Shown piece after piece: positions 10,768-29,920 of a stretch of DNA of 32,000 nucleotides. The position numbers and the translations under genes are program-made. Source of the stretch: Candidatus Saccharimonadota bacterium (GTDB lineage: Bacteria; Patescibacteriota; Microgenomatia; UBA1406; GWC2-37-13). The stretch spans positions 720,001 to 752,000 of the forward strand of contig MGBH01000001.1 in assembly GCA_001790095.1 (NCBI GenBank), written 5' to 3'. Below the pieces are notes generated by a model, which was not told the DNA's origin, made no database searches, and saw only the letters and a program-made list of their open reading frames with translations. How positions within the stretch are numbered: the first letter of the stretch is position 1; the number at the start of each line of letters is the position of its first letter.

Positions 10768-11388
10768 TTAAGTTGTTCTGCAAATACATTTTACTGTTCC
10801 CTCCCCTATCCTTTCCCATTTCCTTGGATACTCTTTGATGTTTATACATATAGCTGTTGCTTCATCAAGACCAATACCATATTTTATATTCCCCCTTTTC
10901 ATTTCCTCTGGCAGTAACACGTGCCTATTACGCTCTGTATAATGAGGTTCGATGATTGTATCTGGTAATAGTCCCAACCCCTTGATAAGAGGACTGTTGG
11001 GCGGCTGACCCATCCGTTGGAAAGACCCAACCACCATAGATCCTGCTGACTCACCAATATAGTATTTACAGTTGCGGATTAAATGTTCTAGTATTTTATT
11101 ACTCTTTATTTTTCTTATTAAACCAACATGATCTCTCCCCCCTAAAACAAATATTAAGGGGTTGTTTGCCTTTAACAAACCTGTCTTTTCCATAGCGTTA
11201 AGAACGTCAACTGATTTGAGTGATGTGGTAAGTAGTTTATAGCTTGTTGCAGCATGCTTATCTGTGCGACTTGCAAATGGAATAAATAATAGCTGTGATG
11301 GCTTGATTCTATCTATAACATTAAAAATATGCTCCCATTGCTCTTGCGAATTATTCGGGCCTCCCCCTCCAAATAGATAAAGAATCAT
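10768..11388 (-). CDS. Peptidase S51 family (dipeptidase E / cyanophycinase-like)
   Basis: Collinear with PepE landmarks: FIPFA, VLGGRDHVGL (GGGNT region), nucleophile motif YIGESAGSMV, and IEPHYT (His region). Confidence 0.75.
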   Translation of the reverse strand: MILYLFGGGGPNNSQEQWEHIFNVIDRIKPSQLLFIPFASRTDKHAATSYKLLTTSLKSVDVLNAMEKTGLLKANNPLIFVLGGRDHVGLIRKIKSNKILEHLIRNCKYYIGESAGSMVVGSFQRMGQPPNSPLIKGLGLLPDTIIEPHYTERNRHVLLPEEMKRGNIKYGIGLDEATAICINIKEYPRKWERIGEGTVKCICRTT

Positions 11389-23558: not shown

Positions 23559-24352
23559 ATATAAACCGGATTCGCGCCACTCTACTTCAAGAATATTATA
23601 TGGTCCAACGGAGTCTTGAAACCATTGTAGATGTATTTGTATACCCGATCATGAACATCATCGTATTCGGTTTTATCTCAAAATTTCTTCTTGGCTCAAC
23701 GGATCGGTCAGTATTTTTGTCTCTTATCGTTGCCATGTTATTTTGGCAGATATTCAGCACTTCCCAGTACACGATAAGTGTGGCAACCTTATGGAATATG
23801 TGGGCACATAATCTTACCAATCTATTCGCCACACCTACTACATTCCTTGAGTACTTTATCGCACATGCCATAACTGCCCTCATCAAAGCGCTTCTCGTCT
23901 TTTTTGTCGGAGCACTTATTGCCTATTTCCAGTTTGGATACAATGTTGTTAATATCCCCTTTCCCCTTCTTCTTGTCATCATGATAAATCTCTACCTCTC
24001 AGGGATTGCAATCGGACTTGTACTGGTTGGCTTTATATTTGCATATGGTACCCGTATACAAGCTCTTGCATGGGGATTTATCTCAATCATTCAACCCTTA
24101 GCATCTGTGTTTTACCCCTTAAGTGTTTTACCTGAGCCGTTCCAATCACTTGCCCGTTTTCTTCCTCTTACGTATATGTTTGAGGCTCTCCGTCAGATTA
24201 TTTCACAGACCGCTCCGCTCCCAATCATCCATACCCAGCTTATGATCGGATCATGTATCACTCTAATCTATCTTATTATCTCTTTTATTATATTTAAATA
24301 TCTTCTTGCCTATTCAAAAGACAGTGGACAGTTTGCCAAAAATGACCTATGA
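23555..24352 (+). CDS. ABC-2 type transporter permease
   Basis: 265 aa with 6 TM helices. The start overlaps the ATPase stop by 4 nt. Confidence 0.8.
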   Translation: MNINRIRATLLQEYYMVQRSLETIVDVFVYPIMNIIVFGFISKFLLGSTDRSVFLSLIVAMLFWQIFSTSQYTISVATLWNMWAHNLTNLFATPTTFLEYFIAHAITALIKALLVFFVGALIAYFQFGYNVVNIPFPLLLVIMINLYLSGIAIGLVLVGFIFAYGTRIQALAWGFISIIQPLASVFYPLSVLPEPFQSLARFLPLTYMFEALRQIISQTAPLPIIHTQLMIGSCITLIYLIISFIIFKYLLAYSKDSGQFAKNDL

Positions 24353-25446
24353 CAAAACAGCGTTTCATACTTGTGAGCGTCGTACCTCCATCCTGCACTA
24401 AAAAGCAGGCTGAAGACGATCTTCAAGAGATCCAAAGCCTTATTGATACATACGGTGGGGCTGATATCGTCGACATAATCCAACGAAGAGCCCGCCCTGA
24501 CGGAGGTACGTATGTCGGATCAGGAAAAGCTCAAGAAATCGCATCACTTGTGGAAAAAAAACAAATAGATGTGGTGGTGATAAACGGGATAGCCCGCGCA
24601 TCCCAGCTTTATCATATCTTGCAGCTTTGCTGGAAAAGCAATCCAAATATACAAGTCTGGGATCGGGTCGATCTTATACTCCACATATTTTCCCATCATG
24701 CGTCAACCGCCGAAGCCAAACTTCAGATTGAGCTTGCCAGCATGCGCCACATGGGTCCGCGTATCTACGGACTGGGAGCAAGTTTCTCTCAACAAGGAGG
24801 AGGAATCGGGACAAAAGGCCTTGGCGAAACCAACGTTGAGCTTATGAAACGACACTGGAGAAATGAAATGAGGAAAAAACAAGAAAAACTTGAAGAGCTT
24901 GAAAAAAACAGGGAACGCCAAGTGACTCGTCGCCATGATCAAGGCCTAATGACGATCTCAATCGTAGGGTATACCAATGTTGGTAAGACGTCGCTTTTTA
25001 ATTTGCTGACCGGAAAAGAAAAATTAGCGAAAAATGTATTATTTGCGACACTTGATAGCGTCGTTGGTAAACTATATTTTAAAGAGATTCAGAAAGAGGT
25101 CGTCATATCAGATACAATCGGCTTTATCCAAAACCTCCCCCCCACACTCATCAACGCTTTCAAATCAACGCTCATGGAGAGTATCCATGCTGACATACTT
25201 CTTCATGTTATAGATATTGCAGATCCTCATATGGAAACTAAAATTAAAGTAGTTGAAAAGATCTTAAGGGACCTAAAAATTGAAAATAAACCTATTTTTT
25301 ATGTGTTCAATAAGATTGATCGAGTTGATGGAAAAAGGATAGCTGAGTGTTCTAAAAACTATGGTGCTTTTTTACCTCAGTTTATATCAGTCCATACCGG
25401 TGTTGGTATAAAAGATTTGTACTACTTTATACAAGAAAAAATTTAG
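24349..25446 (+). CDS. hflX: GTPase HflX
   Basis: HflX N-domain (GSGKAQEI...), G1 GYTNVGKTSLFN, G3 DTIGFI and G4 NKID. The start overlaps the permease stop by 4 nt. Confidence 0.9.
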   Translation: MTKQRFILVSVVPPSCTKKQAEDDLQEIQSLIDTYGGADIVDIIQRRARPDGGTYVGSGKAQEIASLVEKKQIDVVVINGIARASQLYHILQLCWKSNPNIQVWDRVDLILHIFSHHASTAEAKLQIELASMRHMGPRIYGLGASFSQQGGGIGTKGLGETNVELMKRHWRNEMRKKQEKLEELEKNRERQVTRRHDQGLMTISIVGYTNVGKTSLFNLLTGKEKLAKNVLFATLDSVVGKLYFKEIQKEVVISDTIGFIQNLPPTLINAFKSTLMESIHADILLHVIDIADPHMETKIKVVEKILRDLKIENKPIFYVFNKIDRVDGKRIAECSKNYGAFLPQFISVHTGVGIKDLYYFIQEKI

Positions 25447-26552: not shown

Positions 26553-27754
26553 TCAAACATTTCCTGCTCAATAGGAGAGAAAAAGAAAACAACAATAGGA
26601 ATAATGCCAATAAATAAAAGGGCACCGCTTAACGTTTTATCAGCTATAAATCCAACGAGGGGATTTAAAAAAACTAACACCAACCGACGTAGCATAGATA
26701 TTGATGACAGTATGGTTGCCTTTTGTCCTGATGGAATAAGTTTATTCATATAGGCCGTCATAAGTTCAAGCCGTGTCAATCCAAATCCCCCGGCCAATAC
26801 AACAAACAACATGACGGTAATAATGTTAGGAATCAAAGCTACCACAAAAAACATAAAAGATGTGATAAGAGCGCTAAATCGTAAATATTGTTTTGCCCCG
26901 CCAAAAAGTTTTTCCAATCGTACGAAGTTTGCTGCGATCAAAACCTCAGTCAAAGCCATGACAGCATGCAATAAACCAAAATATATGAGAGGAATACCAA
27001 GTGACTGCAATAATGGTTGATACAACCAGATAACAAAATAGGCAGCAGCTGCAACGATAACAGCATCAAGCGCAATAAGACGTAAAACGCGATGATGGTA
27101 AAAGAAATTCAATCCTGTTTTCAAAATAATCATATATCTTTTACTTTCCGATACTTTATCTTTTAGGATAGGTTCTTTTATATTCCAAGCTATGACTGCT
27201 GCAATAAAAAAAGGTATTGCACAAAATAACATAGGCGCATTGACGCCAAATATGGAAGCCATGATTCCACCGATCGGCGCTGAAATAAGCATGGCGATAA
27301 GCTGTATCGCGTGTGCTTTACCTGCAAGATGTTTTATCTCTCCCTCTCTTCCCTCTTCTTTGAGTGCGTCATACAACAATGCGTCATCCGCTCCTGACAT
27401 AAAAGAAAAGGCTGCAGCAAACAAAAACTCTCCCAGCAAAAAGACCGGGTAAGAAGGGACGCTCCCATAGATCAATGCGCCAAAGGTGACAACCAATGCT
27501 CCCATTGCCAGTGAGTATTTGCGGCCAAAATAATCCGCTACCACTCCTGTTGGCACTTCAAGGATAAAGATCCACAACATAAACCATGACTGAAGTATCA
27601 AAATCTGAAATTTACTGATATGCGCCCAGTTGGTATAGATAGGCACAAGTACTGCAGAAAAAAAATGCAGATTCACAAAAAAAGTAAAGGCGAAATAACG
27701 CCAGATAGTTTTAGAACTGTTTTTTACAAAATAGTGCTTAATACTTTTTTTCAT
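26549..27754 (-). CDS. MFS transporter
   Basis: 12 TM helices and MFS motif A GVVADYFGRKYSL between TM2 and TM3. Preceded by GGAGG 9 nt upstream of the ATG. Confidence 0.85.
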   Translation of the reverse strand: MKKSIKHYFVKNSSKTIWRYFAFTFFVNLHFFSAVLVPIYTNWAHISKFQILILQSWFMLWIFILEVPTGVVADYFGRKYSLAMGALVVTFGALIYGSVPSYPVFLLGEFLFAAAFSFMSGADDALLYDALKEEGREGEIKHLAGKAHAIQLIAMLISAPIGGIMASIFGVNAPMLFCAIPFFIAAVIAWNIKEPILKDKVSESKRYMIILKTGLNFFYHHRVLRLIALDAVIVAAAAYFVIWLYQPLLQSLGIPLIYFGLLHAVMALTEVLIAANFVRLEKLFGGAKQYLRFSALITSFMFFVVALIPNIITVMLFVVLAGGFGLTRLELMTAYMNKLIPSGQKATILSSISMLRRLVLVFLNPLVGFIADKTLSGALLFIGIIPIVVFFFSPIEQEMFD

Positions 27755-27757
27755 ACT

Positions 27758-27780
27758 AAAAAACCCTCCGATTCGGAGGG
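27758..27780 (-). terminator. Intrinsic terminator-like hairpin in the 5' leader of the MFS gene; its 3' arm contains the SD
   Basis: The minus strand reads CCCTCCG-AAT-CGGAGGG-TTTTTT-AGT-ATG. The stem is 7 bp (5 G:C pairs) and the T6 tract ends 3 nt before the start codon. Confidence 0.6.
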
Positions 27781-27802
27781 CTGTGCGTAATAGTTTATAA
27801 AG

Positions 27803-27895
27803 TTATCTTCCGCTATTACCACAGCCGCCGTGTTTAGCCTCGTTTTCAACGAGGGTATCCATGCGAAGTAAAGTGGTAATACAGAGATAAAACAT
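27803..27895 (-). CDS. Candidate leaderless leader peptide (uORF, 30 codons)
   Basis: ATG at 27895 sits 6 nt after TGCTATAAT and encodes MFYLCITTLLRMDTLVENEAKHGGCGNSGR*. It spans segments 1 and 2 of the alternative helices. No independent evidence of translation. Confidence 0.35.
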   Translation of the reverse strand: MFYLCITTLLRMDTLVENEAKHGGCGNSGR

Positions 27896-27901
27896 AAAGT
27901 T

Positions 27902-27910
27902 ATTATAGCA
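27902..27910 (-). promoter_or_regulatory. Extended -10 promoter TGCTATAAT
   Basis: Perfect TGnTATAAT on the minus strand, 141 nt upstream of the MFS start codon. Confidence 0.55.
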
Positions 27911-28894: not shown

Positions 28895-29920
28895 ATGAAT
28901 GCTGAAACAATGACAATGAATCGACCATTTAATTTCTTACGCATAACAAGCGAGCCAAGCTGTACTTTTTTATGCAAGAAATGTAATCCTCAAGGAAAAT
29001 TTAATCCGCTGATGATGCCAACTCATGAAGTTCTTGAAACGGTTCAAGCAGCTGTTGAACTCGGCATTGATACCGTCCACCTTATTGGAGGTGAACCAAG
29101 TAAACGAAAAGATATCGTTGAATTAGTAGCCGGTATGAAAAAGGTAGGTATACAAACCATAGAAATGACCACAAACGGTGTTCCTTTTTACCGACTTGCA
29201 GAACCACTAGCAAAGGCTGGTTTAACAGGAGTCAATGTCAGCCTAGATACATTTGATCCTGAAAAATTCAAAGAACTTACGGGAAGAAGAGCCCTACCGC
29301 TCACGCTTGAGGCCATAAGAAAAGCAAAAGAACTGTTTAAAAAAGTTGCAATCAACATGGTTGTCATGAGGCGTAATTTCGACGAGATAAGAGATTTTGT
29401 TGAGTTTTCTAGAACTACAGGGATAATGGTCCGTTTTTGTGAACTAACACCGCATGGTCCGTTTATGGAAACCAATCCAGAATTTTTTGACGATAATCAT
29501 GTTCCTAAAGAGGAGATAATGGAAGCCCTGAAGGCAATAGCTCCTCTTGAGAATGCAAGCAAACAAGATATTGATACACAAAATGCCCATTCAGAGTATT
29601 ATACCCTCGGAGGAGGTTTTAATGGTATGAAGATGGGCGTCATAACTCAATATTCAAATGGATGGCCATGTCCTGGCCCCGAATGTACAAGGCTCCGTAT
29701 AGGACCAACAAGTGCAAATTCTTGTGTTGTTTTTCCTGACCATAACCTCATGGGCTTATCTTTAGCAGAAAAAAGAGCCGTTCTTCAAGAACTTATAGAA
29801 GAAAGAAGAGGACAGATGAAAGAAGGATTCCCGAAGCAACATGATCCAACAGATTCCTATCCTCTATATAGGTTTGGTCTACGCAAATCCGTAGATAATA
29901 TTCCAGTTACCCCAGCTTAA
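28895..29920 (+). CDS. MoaA-like radical SAM enzyme (GTP 3',8-cyclase family fold, divergent)
   Basis: Collinear with MoaA: LRITSEPSCTFLCKKCNPQG (Cx3Cx2C), LIGGEPSKRKDIVELV, MTTNG, AGLTGVNVSLDTFDPEKFKELTG, VRFCELTP, and a second cluster-like CPGPECTRLRIGPTSANSC. It lacks the MoaA C-terminal Gly-Gly, and the Cys spacing of the second cluster differs. Confidence 0.75.
   Translation: MNAETMTMNRPFNFLRITSEPSCTFLCKKCNPQGKFNPLMMPTHEVLETVQAAVELGIDTVHLIGGEPSKRKDIVELVAGMKKVGIQTIEMTTNGVPFYRLAEPLAKAGLTGVNVSLDTFDPEKFKELTGRRALPLTLEAIRKAKELFKKVAINMVVMRRNFDEIRDFVEFSRTTGIMVRFCELTPHGPFMETNPEFFDDNHVPKEEIMEALKAIAPLENASKQDIDTQNAHSEYYTLGGGFNGMKMGVITQYSNGWPCPGPECTRLRIGPTSANSCVVFPDHNLMGLSLAEKRAVLQELIEERRGQMKEGFPKQHDPTDSYPLYRFGLRKSVDNIPVTPA

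Follow-up and report, generated by a model that had tools for sequence, protein, structure and literature searches.

A probable family of ribosome-mediated attenuators with leaderless upstream reading frames before transporter genes of Patescibacteria

Antibiotic-inducible attenuators include the leaders of cmlA and fexA and the cat and erm leaders. Further attenuators of this antibiotic-inducible kind precede exporter genes, namely the one before the efflux pump gene mef(E), which is accompanied by mel/msr(D) (PMC4335068), and that of the bmrB-bmrCD system before the ABC (ATP-binding cassette) transporter BmrCD (PMC4191407). In the ilvBNC operon of Corynebacterium glutamicum, as summarized in PMC11857589 (citing Morbach et al., 2000), the leader peptide IlvL starts 1 nt from the transcription start site (TSS) and the leader can form three alternative hairpins, and in mycobacteria leaderless polycysteine upstream open reading frames (uORFs), which contain consecutive Cys codons, respond to cysteine (bioRxiv 10.1101/834739). 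A search of the literature returned no description of attenuators or leader peptides in Patescibacteria (Candidate Phyla Radiation, CPR), an almost entirely uncultured group in which the leader family described here provides a concrete cis-regulatory element. This family is represented on the minus strand of a 32,000-nucleotide stretch of a Candidatus Saccharimonadota genome (contig MGBH01000001.1, positions 720,001 to 752,000; hereafter the window) by a leader at 27910-27758, directly upstream of a major facilitator superfamily (MFS) transporter gene.

The leader is read here, with a probability of about 0.75, as a ribosome-mediated transcription attenuator with a leader peptide translated from a leaderless mRNA. 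It combines a short leader ORF that has a usable start, a first segment that lies inside this ORF, three mutually exclusive helices, an intrinsic terminator, and selection on the ORF. Mechanistically it resembles known attenuators, and by sequence it is a member of no curated family; it is of a known regulatory kind and represents a new family, which is absent from Rfam and conserved in at least 25 uncultured Patescibacteria.

The leader and its alternative helices

Read on the minus strand, the leader begins with an extended -10 element (TGCTATAAT, 27910-27902), without a good -35 element, followed by a 6-nt spacer (AACTTT) and an ATG at 27895 that opens a leaderless uORF of 30 codons plus TAA (MFYLCITTLLRMDTLVENEAKHGGCGNSGR*, 27895-27803), the stop codon of which (27805-27803) lies inside segment 2. 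Segment 1 (27890-27873, uORF codons 2-8) is the 5' strand of an outer helix, P1, in the minimum-energy structure given by RNAfold. For this 1:2 helix a sequence-only reading had described a perfect 9-bp pairing of TATTACCAC (27881-27873) with GTGGTAATA (27822-27814); the pairing is present, but its length was understated, as RNAfold pairs 27890-27873 with 27822-27803 over 18 pairs and encloses an irregular inner helix, P2, and a hairpin, P3. The 5' strand of P2, placed by the fold and by covariance-model alignment, occupies 27866-27856 and reads AAnCAGCC in most relatives, and P3 (CCTCGTT-GAA-AACGAGG, 27854-27838) falls within uORF codons 14-20 with its apex at nucleotide 50. Segment 2 (27836-27803) supplies the 3' strands of both P2 (27836-27825) and P1 (27822-27803).

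Part of segment 2 (GGCTGTGGTAATAG, 27826-27813) is also the 5' strand of an antiterminator, the 3' strand of which is segment 3 (CTATTACGCACAGCC, 27793-27779), as indicated by the sequence, the masked fold, and the duplex energy. Segment 3 overlaps the 5' arm of an intrinsic terminator formed by segments 3 and 4 (AGCCCTCCG-AAT-CGGAGGGTT and a T tract, 27782-27758), which was located by the fold and by a terminator scan. The terminator has nine pairs; its core, CCCTCCG-AAT-CGGAGGG (27780-27764), is followed by T6 (27763-27758), the trinucleotide AGT, and the MFS start codon at 27754, such that the T tract ends 3 nt before that ATG. The promoter, 6-nt gap, and 30-codon ORF, the 7+7-bp alternative pairing of 27826-27813 with 27793-27779, and the terminator with its T6 and closely following start codon had all been proposed by the sequence-only reading, and every element was found in the minus-strand sequence where it had been placed.

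The folding statistics of the window copy are clearly non-random. The leader, 151 nt in length, has a folding energy of -50.1 kcal/mol where dinucleotide shuffles give -31.1 +/- 3.4 (z = -5.6), the 1:2 stem by itself has z = -5.05 against shuffles, and the 2:3 duplex, which covers the 5' arm of the terminator, reaches -21.6 kcal/mol (z = -5.1). When the 5' strand is masked, the antiterminator displaces four of the nine terminator pairs in the minimum-energy fold. The leader terminator, singled out by eye as the only convincing one in the window, ranks first among terminator-like sites in both window scans, and the other sites stay near shuffle expectation (13 sites, the leader's included, versus 9.1 +/- 2.9 at 20-32 kb; 17 versus 11.6 +/- 3.1 at 1-20 kb). 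The window holds a single copy of the leader.

The same leader is found upstream of orthologous MFS genes in Microgenomates-like Patescibacteria, for a total of 25 leaders (the window and 24 further loci); among 61 distinct orthologues with at least 48% identity and sufficient upstream sequence, 23 carry it. No primary-sequence similarity emerged when the window leader was compared by blastn and nhmmer with the first 54 orthologous loci; homology is visible as architecture only, namely a sigma-70 -10 box, an ATG, a short ORF, a long P1/P2/P3 stem, an A-rich linker, and a terminator. A -10 hexamer that matches TATAAT at five or more of six positions ends 5-12 nt before the uORF ATG in all 25 leaders, with a TG extension in 13 and a perfect TTGACA -35 in six. 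The family terminator usually reads AACCAGCC-loop-GGCUGGUUUUUUU, carries 6-9 U in all members, and lies 5-138 nt (mostly less than 35 nt) from the MFS start; its box pattern, CCAGC...GCTGGTTTT, has no other occurrence within the fetched loci. A covariance model built on 23 leaders retrieves all of these seed sequences at E <= 1e-9 and all 25 leaders at E <= 1e-8, including two non-seed members (L079 and L101) that both start with ATG and have ORFs of 27 and 30 codons. MAFFT combined with RNAalifold recovered only P3 and the terminator, and P1 and P2 required per-sequence folds and the covariance model.

Conservation of the helices in orthologous leaders, a check that the sequence-only reading had proposed, was borne out, with helices 1:2, 2:3, and 3:4 kept in the 24 further leaders; the attenuator topology that it had recognized thus survives both this comparison and the folding and duplex tests. 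All members fold into the P1/P2/P3 stem (median z = -3.8, every z negative). In the model-based alignment, compensatory changes occur in 25 of 35 pairs (99 cells), including all nine aligned P3 pairs, and the covariation score of 0.320 compares with 0.176 +/- 0.012 for column shuffles (0 of 500 reach 0.320) and with 0.07-0.14 for slid pairings. Across 23 members the antiterminator duplex has a median free energy (dG) of -19.6 kcal/mol and a median z of -4.9, and it overlaps the 5' arm of the terminator in 22; the single exception, L071, is a search-window artefact, and its antiterminator appears in the masked fold. As a consequence of the shared alternative pairings, segment 3 repeats the sequence of segment 1, and segment 4 that of segment 2. 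Most members also have a U-rich stretch after P3, which the window copy lacks and which may be a pause site that synchronizes RNA polymerase with the ribosome.

One feature of the sequence-only reading proved to be local. A Shine-Dalgarno (SD)-like GGAGG (27769-27765) does sit in the 3' arm of the window terminator, as had been noted in support of an SD-sequestering hairpin, but this arm is confined to the window and L059, most family members having GGCUGG instead. The SD trap is, to judge from this distribution, a lineage-specific add-on and not the core mechanism.

Selection on the upstream reading frame

The second proposed check, conservation of the uORF, was likewise borne out: the frame is open over 20-31 codons in 25 of 25 leaders. 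Among 23 leaders, frame 0 is open for at least 20 codons in every one, compared with 8 and 1 for frames +1 and +2, and the product of the per-sequence shuffle probabilities for frame 0 is about 1e-17, the sequences being not fully independent. In the alignment, codon phase at the 5' strand of P2 and at P3 is kept in 23-24 of the 25 leaders despite indels, and it is split 16/7/2 at segment 2 and 12/9/4 at the terminator. An alignment-free measure agrees: counted from the first letter of the ATG, the P3 apex falls on nucleotide 41, 44, 47, or 50, always codon position 2, in each of the 18 hairpins that have odd loops, versus a spread of 5/3/3 for terminator apices. Starting at the ATG, phase is maintained as far as P3, and past the stop codon it is lost. 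In every case the stop codon separates segment 2, which it follows by a median of 7.5 nt, from segment 3, which begins 9-37 nt further on. The uORF is, by these sequence comparisons, under selection as an ORF and not only as RNA.

The encoded peptide behaves differently. No amino-acid runs or clustered control codons were found in the leader peptides. The top residue in codons 2-14 is Thr (10.5% versus 5.4% in the proteome), and Cys is enriched without runs (4.9% versus 1.2%), the window clade having a peptide rich in Cys. Segment 2 is translated in more than one frame among related members, giving AGF or LVS, and the [P/S]-A that recurs at the 5' strand of P2 (CCA GCN) is inseparable from the RNA constraint; overall, the peptide is not conserved. 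The selected trait appears to be translation and its extent rather than the product. The uORF begins ATG-TT(T/C), encoding Met-Phe, in 12 of the 25 leaders (27895-27890 in the window). Several folds place the 5' AUGUU opposite AACAU or GAACA just after the stop codon. This pairing may sequester the start codon and block re-initiation once the stem has folded.

These data also bear on the possibility that the uORF is a small-protein gene (encoding a toxin, a membrane peptide, or the precursor of a ribosomally synthesized and post-translationally modified peptide, RiPP) with its own terminator, the MFS gene being expressed by leaky read-through and the helices being incidental. The ORF is conserved and probably translated, the window clade has the Cys-rich peptide, and a radical S-adenosylmethionine (SAM) gene lies nearby (28895-29920). 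Such an explanation is nevertheless very improbable, for the peptide is not conserved and has no codon-position periodicity, its C-terminal part is read in different frames among related members, and the 2:3 antiterminator is strongly non-random in 22 of 23 members. The RiPP-precursor variant, prompted by the Cys-rich peptide and the radical-SAM gene, was rejected on account of the unconserved peptide and of an enzyme that is MoaA-like and not syntenic in other loci.

A more serious contender is a riboswitch, to which the sequence-only reading had considered the locus equally suited. In that case P1/P2/P3 would be an aptamer whose ligand stabilizes the anti-antiterminator and thereby permits the terminator to form (an OFF switch), the uORF being incidental or secondary. 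The conserved, covarying three-part stem with its classical expression platform, the identity of the regulated gene as a transporter, the conserved sequence of segment 2 (UGCUGGUUU), and the lack of peptide conservation would all accord with this proposal. A riboswitch would, however, be expected to have junction or loop nucleotides that are highly conserved, or else to match a known class, and neither was found: junction and P3-loop columns have high entropy, the P3 loops vary freely, and the invariant positions of the stem are the ATG and one G, the ATG being the sole invariant triplet in the first ~110 nt. The Rfam search that had been suggested (Rfam 15) gave no match for the leader at gathering thresholds, consistent with the earlier failure to assign the aptamer-like part to any known riboswitch class, and at E <= 10 returned only sub-threshold Trp/Phe-leader and tracrRNA matches in which the terminator part is aligned. 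Of the hairpin that had been called aptamer-like, P3 itself is present and its aptamer character is not sustained, since it is a hairpin of variable sequence inside a probably translated ORF. Moreover, the stem lies wholly within an ORF of conserved openness, phase, and leaderless start, for which an untranslated aptamer gives no reason, and a translating ribosome would unfold the aptamer. Given the conserved ORF and phase, the ATG as sole invariant triplet, the unconserved junctions, and the lack of an Rfam match, the ribosome-mediated attenuator is favored and a riboswitch is considered distinctly unlikely. For RNA biology, the locus illustrates cleanly how an analysis of ORF phase can tell a leader-peptide attenuator from a riboswitch.

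Proposed mechanism and genomic context

From the arrangement of these elements, we infer the direction of regulation and the part played by ribosome stalling as follows. Transcription would start about 7 nt after TATAAT, at or beside the A of the ATG at 27895. A ribosome would then load on the 5'-terminal AUG and translate 30 codons through segment 1, P3, and segment 2, stopping between segments 2 and 3. If no ribosome loads, the 1:2 stem would form, segment 3 would pair with segment 4, and transcription would end 3 nt before the MFS start. An unimpeded ribosome that has reached the stop codon would sit on the linker as well as on the 3' portion of segment 2, such that 2:3 pairing would be prevented or weakened and the terminator would again form. 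A ribosome slowed or stalled at roughly codons 3-14, by contrast, would cover segment 1 and leave segment 2 free to pair with segment 3 (14-19 bp); this pairing would consume the 5' arm of the terminator, leading to read-through and production of the transporter. In the window copy, the 2:3 pairing would also free the SD-like GGAGG of the terminator 3' arm. As the peptide is free to vary and lacks amino-acid runs, a general slowdown of early elongation, caused by translation inhibitors or by a shortage of aminoacyl-tRNA, is favored as the inducing signal over a specific arrest peptide. Under this proposal, transporter expression would be tied to ribosome performance.

A rather improbable extension would make the leader a new class of small-molecule sensor, in which either the nascent peptide in the exit tunnel or the P1/P2/P3 RNA during translation recognizes a compound and turns on an exporter. 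A [S/I]-T-x...[P/S]-A segment, encoded by the 5' strands of P1 and P2, recurs among the peptides. Either a metabolite of host origin or a natural product directed at the ribosome could be that compound. Such a sensor would give the Candidate Phyla Radiation a naturally occurring inducible switch that reads RNA structure and leaderless translation together.

Several observations weigh against a ribosome-mediated attenuator. With segment 1 masked, the minimum-energy folds of about 10 of 23 members retain the terminator, and antitermination in those members must therefore be kinetic. Three-periodic conservation is absent from the uORF (column entropy 1.49/1.63/1.56 at codon positions 1/2/3); in conjunction with the lack of regulatory codon runs, this leaves no feature of the sequence that points to a particular stalling cue. 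The transcription start, the short terminated RNA, and translation of the uORF are predictions from sequence, and the similarity of the transporter to drug exporters is far below family cut-offs and of superfamily level only. Lastly, segments 1/3 (AAnCAGCC) and 2/4 (GGCUGGUU) are conserved in sequence beyond the pure need for pairing, an excess that could point to a trans-acting factor.

Were such a factor at work, attenuation would be mediated by an RNA-binding protein or an uncharged tRNA that reads the CCAGCC/GGCUGGUU boxes, in the manner of PyrR, TRAP, or T-box systems. In most members these segments are indeed unusually conserved for loci whose MFS proteins are 55-60% identical. Nevertheless, other box sequences occupy the same places in the window, L059, L055, and L033, which still retain the architecture and the uORF; no conserved neighboring regulator gene was found across the loci; and conservation of the ORF and its phase would be left unexplained. 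Furthermore, the four-way pairing constraint (1~3, 2~4) may itself explain the static AAnCAGCC/GGCUGGUU boxes. Neither a T-box match at E <= 10 nor any other Rfam match was obtained, and the leader is only ~135 nt long, for which reasons a T-box leader was rejected. Factor-mediated control is accordingly given very little credence.

The regulated gene (27754-26549, minus strand) is monocistronic and encodes an MFS transporter of 401 aa (Pfam MFS_1/MFS_3). Its relatives are nearly all found in metagenome-assembled genomes of Patescibacteria/CPR (Woesebacteria, Roizmanbacteria, Shapirobacteria, and the Microgenomates group), along with some DPANN archaea. The best NCBIfam matches are far below threshold, namely TetA(P) (50 bits versus a cut-off of 750) and TIGR00900 (49 versus 320; library name 'H+ Antiporter protein'), with Tet(40) as another weak sub-threshold match, and a sequence search of the PDB with the transporter returned no close solved structure and no informative homologue. 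That the protein is an exporter is, on this basis, a tentative guess.

The start of the uORF agrees with the habit of the genome. Among 30 long ORFs in the window, 12 have a TATAAT-like hexamer that ends 4-10 nt before the start, versus 5.8% of background ATGs, and only two have an SD core, one of them being the MFS gene via its GGAGG. Leaderless-type starts include those of 10768-11388(-), 11589(+), 12249(+), 13305(+), and 30034(+). The host genome thus appears, as far as sequence allows, to be largely leaderless, and the uORF has the same configuration (TATAAT, 6 nt) as the leaderless genes of the window. The MFS start, being preceded by the leader, is internal to its mRNA. Of the 38 orthologues without the leader, 18 have an in-frame start, at or close to the predicted MFS start, that a -10 box precedes by 4-10 nt, and in 14 of these the start with this spacing is the predicted one, implying that the MFS gene is probably leaderless there; L004, L012, L015, L018, L032, L060, L072, and L103 are among the loci with a -10 box directly before the MFS start. 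The attenuator has the appearance of an insert that separates the MFS gene from a leaderless promoter. The in-genome evidence also indicates that in these Microgenomates-like organisms there is a heavy reliance on leaderless translation and that intrinsic termination does occur.

Variant leaders were encountered as well. In the 81%-identical orthologue L055 (838-947), and likewise in L056, an insertion of ~105 nt between the leader terminator and the MFS start is strongly structured, with two hairpins (z = -4.8), and has no Rfam match. L003 (2950-2982) and L115 have only a segment-2-like remnant and a U run (TATGCTGGTTTTT) directly before the MFS start, and this may represent the leader in a degenerate or an ancestral state. 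More distant MFS homologues (~30% identity; Saccharibacteria, WS6/Dojkabacteria, and Moranbacteria; L037-L053 and L125-L137) have a different, highly conserved leader, GTGAATAGCCTCCAAATACGGAGGTTTTTT ... TATTTGGAAGTTATACACCCTCAA ... AAAAGGAGAA-ATG, which precedes the MFS start by ~100-230 nt (L041:2770-3000 is an example) and for which no Rfam match was obtained, and a third variant, AAGCCTCCGGAAACGGAGGCTTTTTT, is present in L094, L110, and L135.

With regard to neighboring genes, an HflX-type GTPase gene (24349-25446, plus strand) adjoins the MFS gene in the window and likewise in its closest relative (L057:2592-3728); a link between the two was discarded, as the synteny is limited to that relative and is not conserved in other loci. 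The radical-SAM protein encoded at 28895-29920 (plus strand) is nearest to MoaA (GTP 3',8-cyclase), at 163 bits versus an equivalog cut-off of 284, and a MoaA-like protein is unexpected in a reduced CPR genome.

Comparison with known attenuators

Inducible expression tools are lacking for Patescibacteria, according to a 2024 perspective (PMC11665869), and a native attenuator of ~140 nt could serve as one once its inducer is known. Where the leader stands among described regulators is best appreciated from its likenesses to, and departures from, four groups of systems.

The attenuators of the E. coli trp, his, and phe operons (Rfam Trp_leader, RF00513; Phe_leader, RF01859) have the same 1:2 / 2:3 / 3:4 topology, with a terminator directly before the gene and an outcome decided by the position of a ribosome on a short ORF. 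They differ in having an SD sequence, an ORF that ends before or at segment 2, and defining control codons, which are absent here. Membership in the Trp_leader and Phe_leader families was rejected, as the matches amount to 17.4 bits versus a gathering threshold of 41 and 18.9 versus one of 55 and only the terminator aligns; an amino-acid biosynthesis attenuator of the trp/his/leu/ilv type was similarly set aside, clustered control codons not having been found.

Like the leader described here, the mef(E)/mel and bmrCD systems place a short upstream ORF, alternative helices, and a terminator before an exporter gene, with induction by ribosome stalling instead of a repressor. Their ORFs, however, are SD-led and, where studied, have defined arrest contexts, whereas no arrest motif is clearly conserved here and the exporter role of the MFS protein is putative. 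The mycobacterial polycysteine uORFs share the placement of a leaderless short ORF at the 5' end of an operon mRNA, where it acts as a cis attenuator of downstream genes, but they appear to act at the level of translation or mRNA and not through an intrinsic terminator, and their Cys runs have no counterpart here (10.1101/834739).

A similar combination of features is seen in ilvBNC of C. glutamicum. As far as the summary in PMC11857589 goes, its start codon lies at the transcription start without a ribosome-binding site, its leader forms anti-antiterminator, antiterminator, and terminator hairpins, and the 5' start codon can in addition be hidden by the first hairpin, comparable to the AUGUU pairing noted above. 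In the same summary, IlvL is a peptide of 15 aa rich in Ile, Val, and Leu control codons, whereas the leaders of the present family have 20-31 codons without runs. In addition, the ORF here spans the two anti-antiterminator strands, with its stop codon between segments 2 and 3, and the regulated gene encodes a transporter in a Patescibacterium rather than belonging to a biosynthetic operon.

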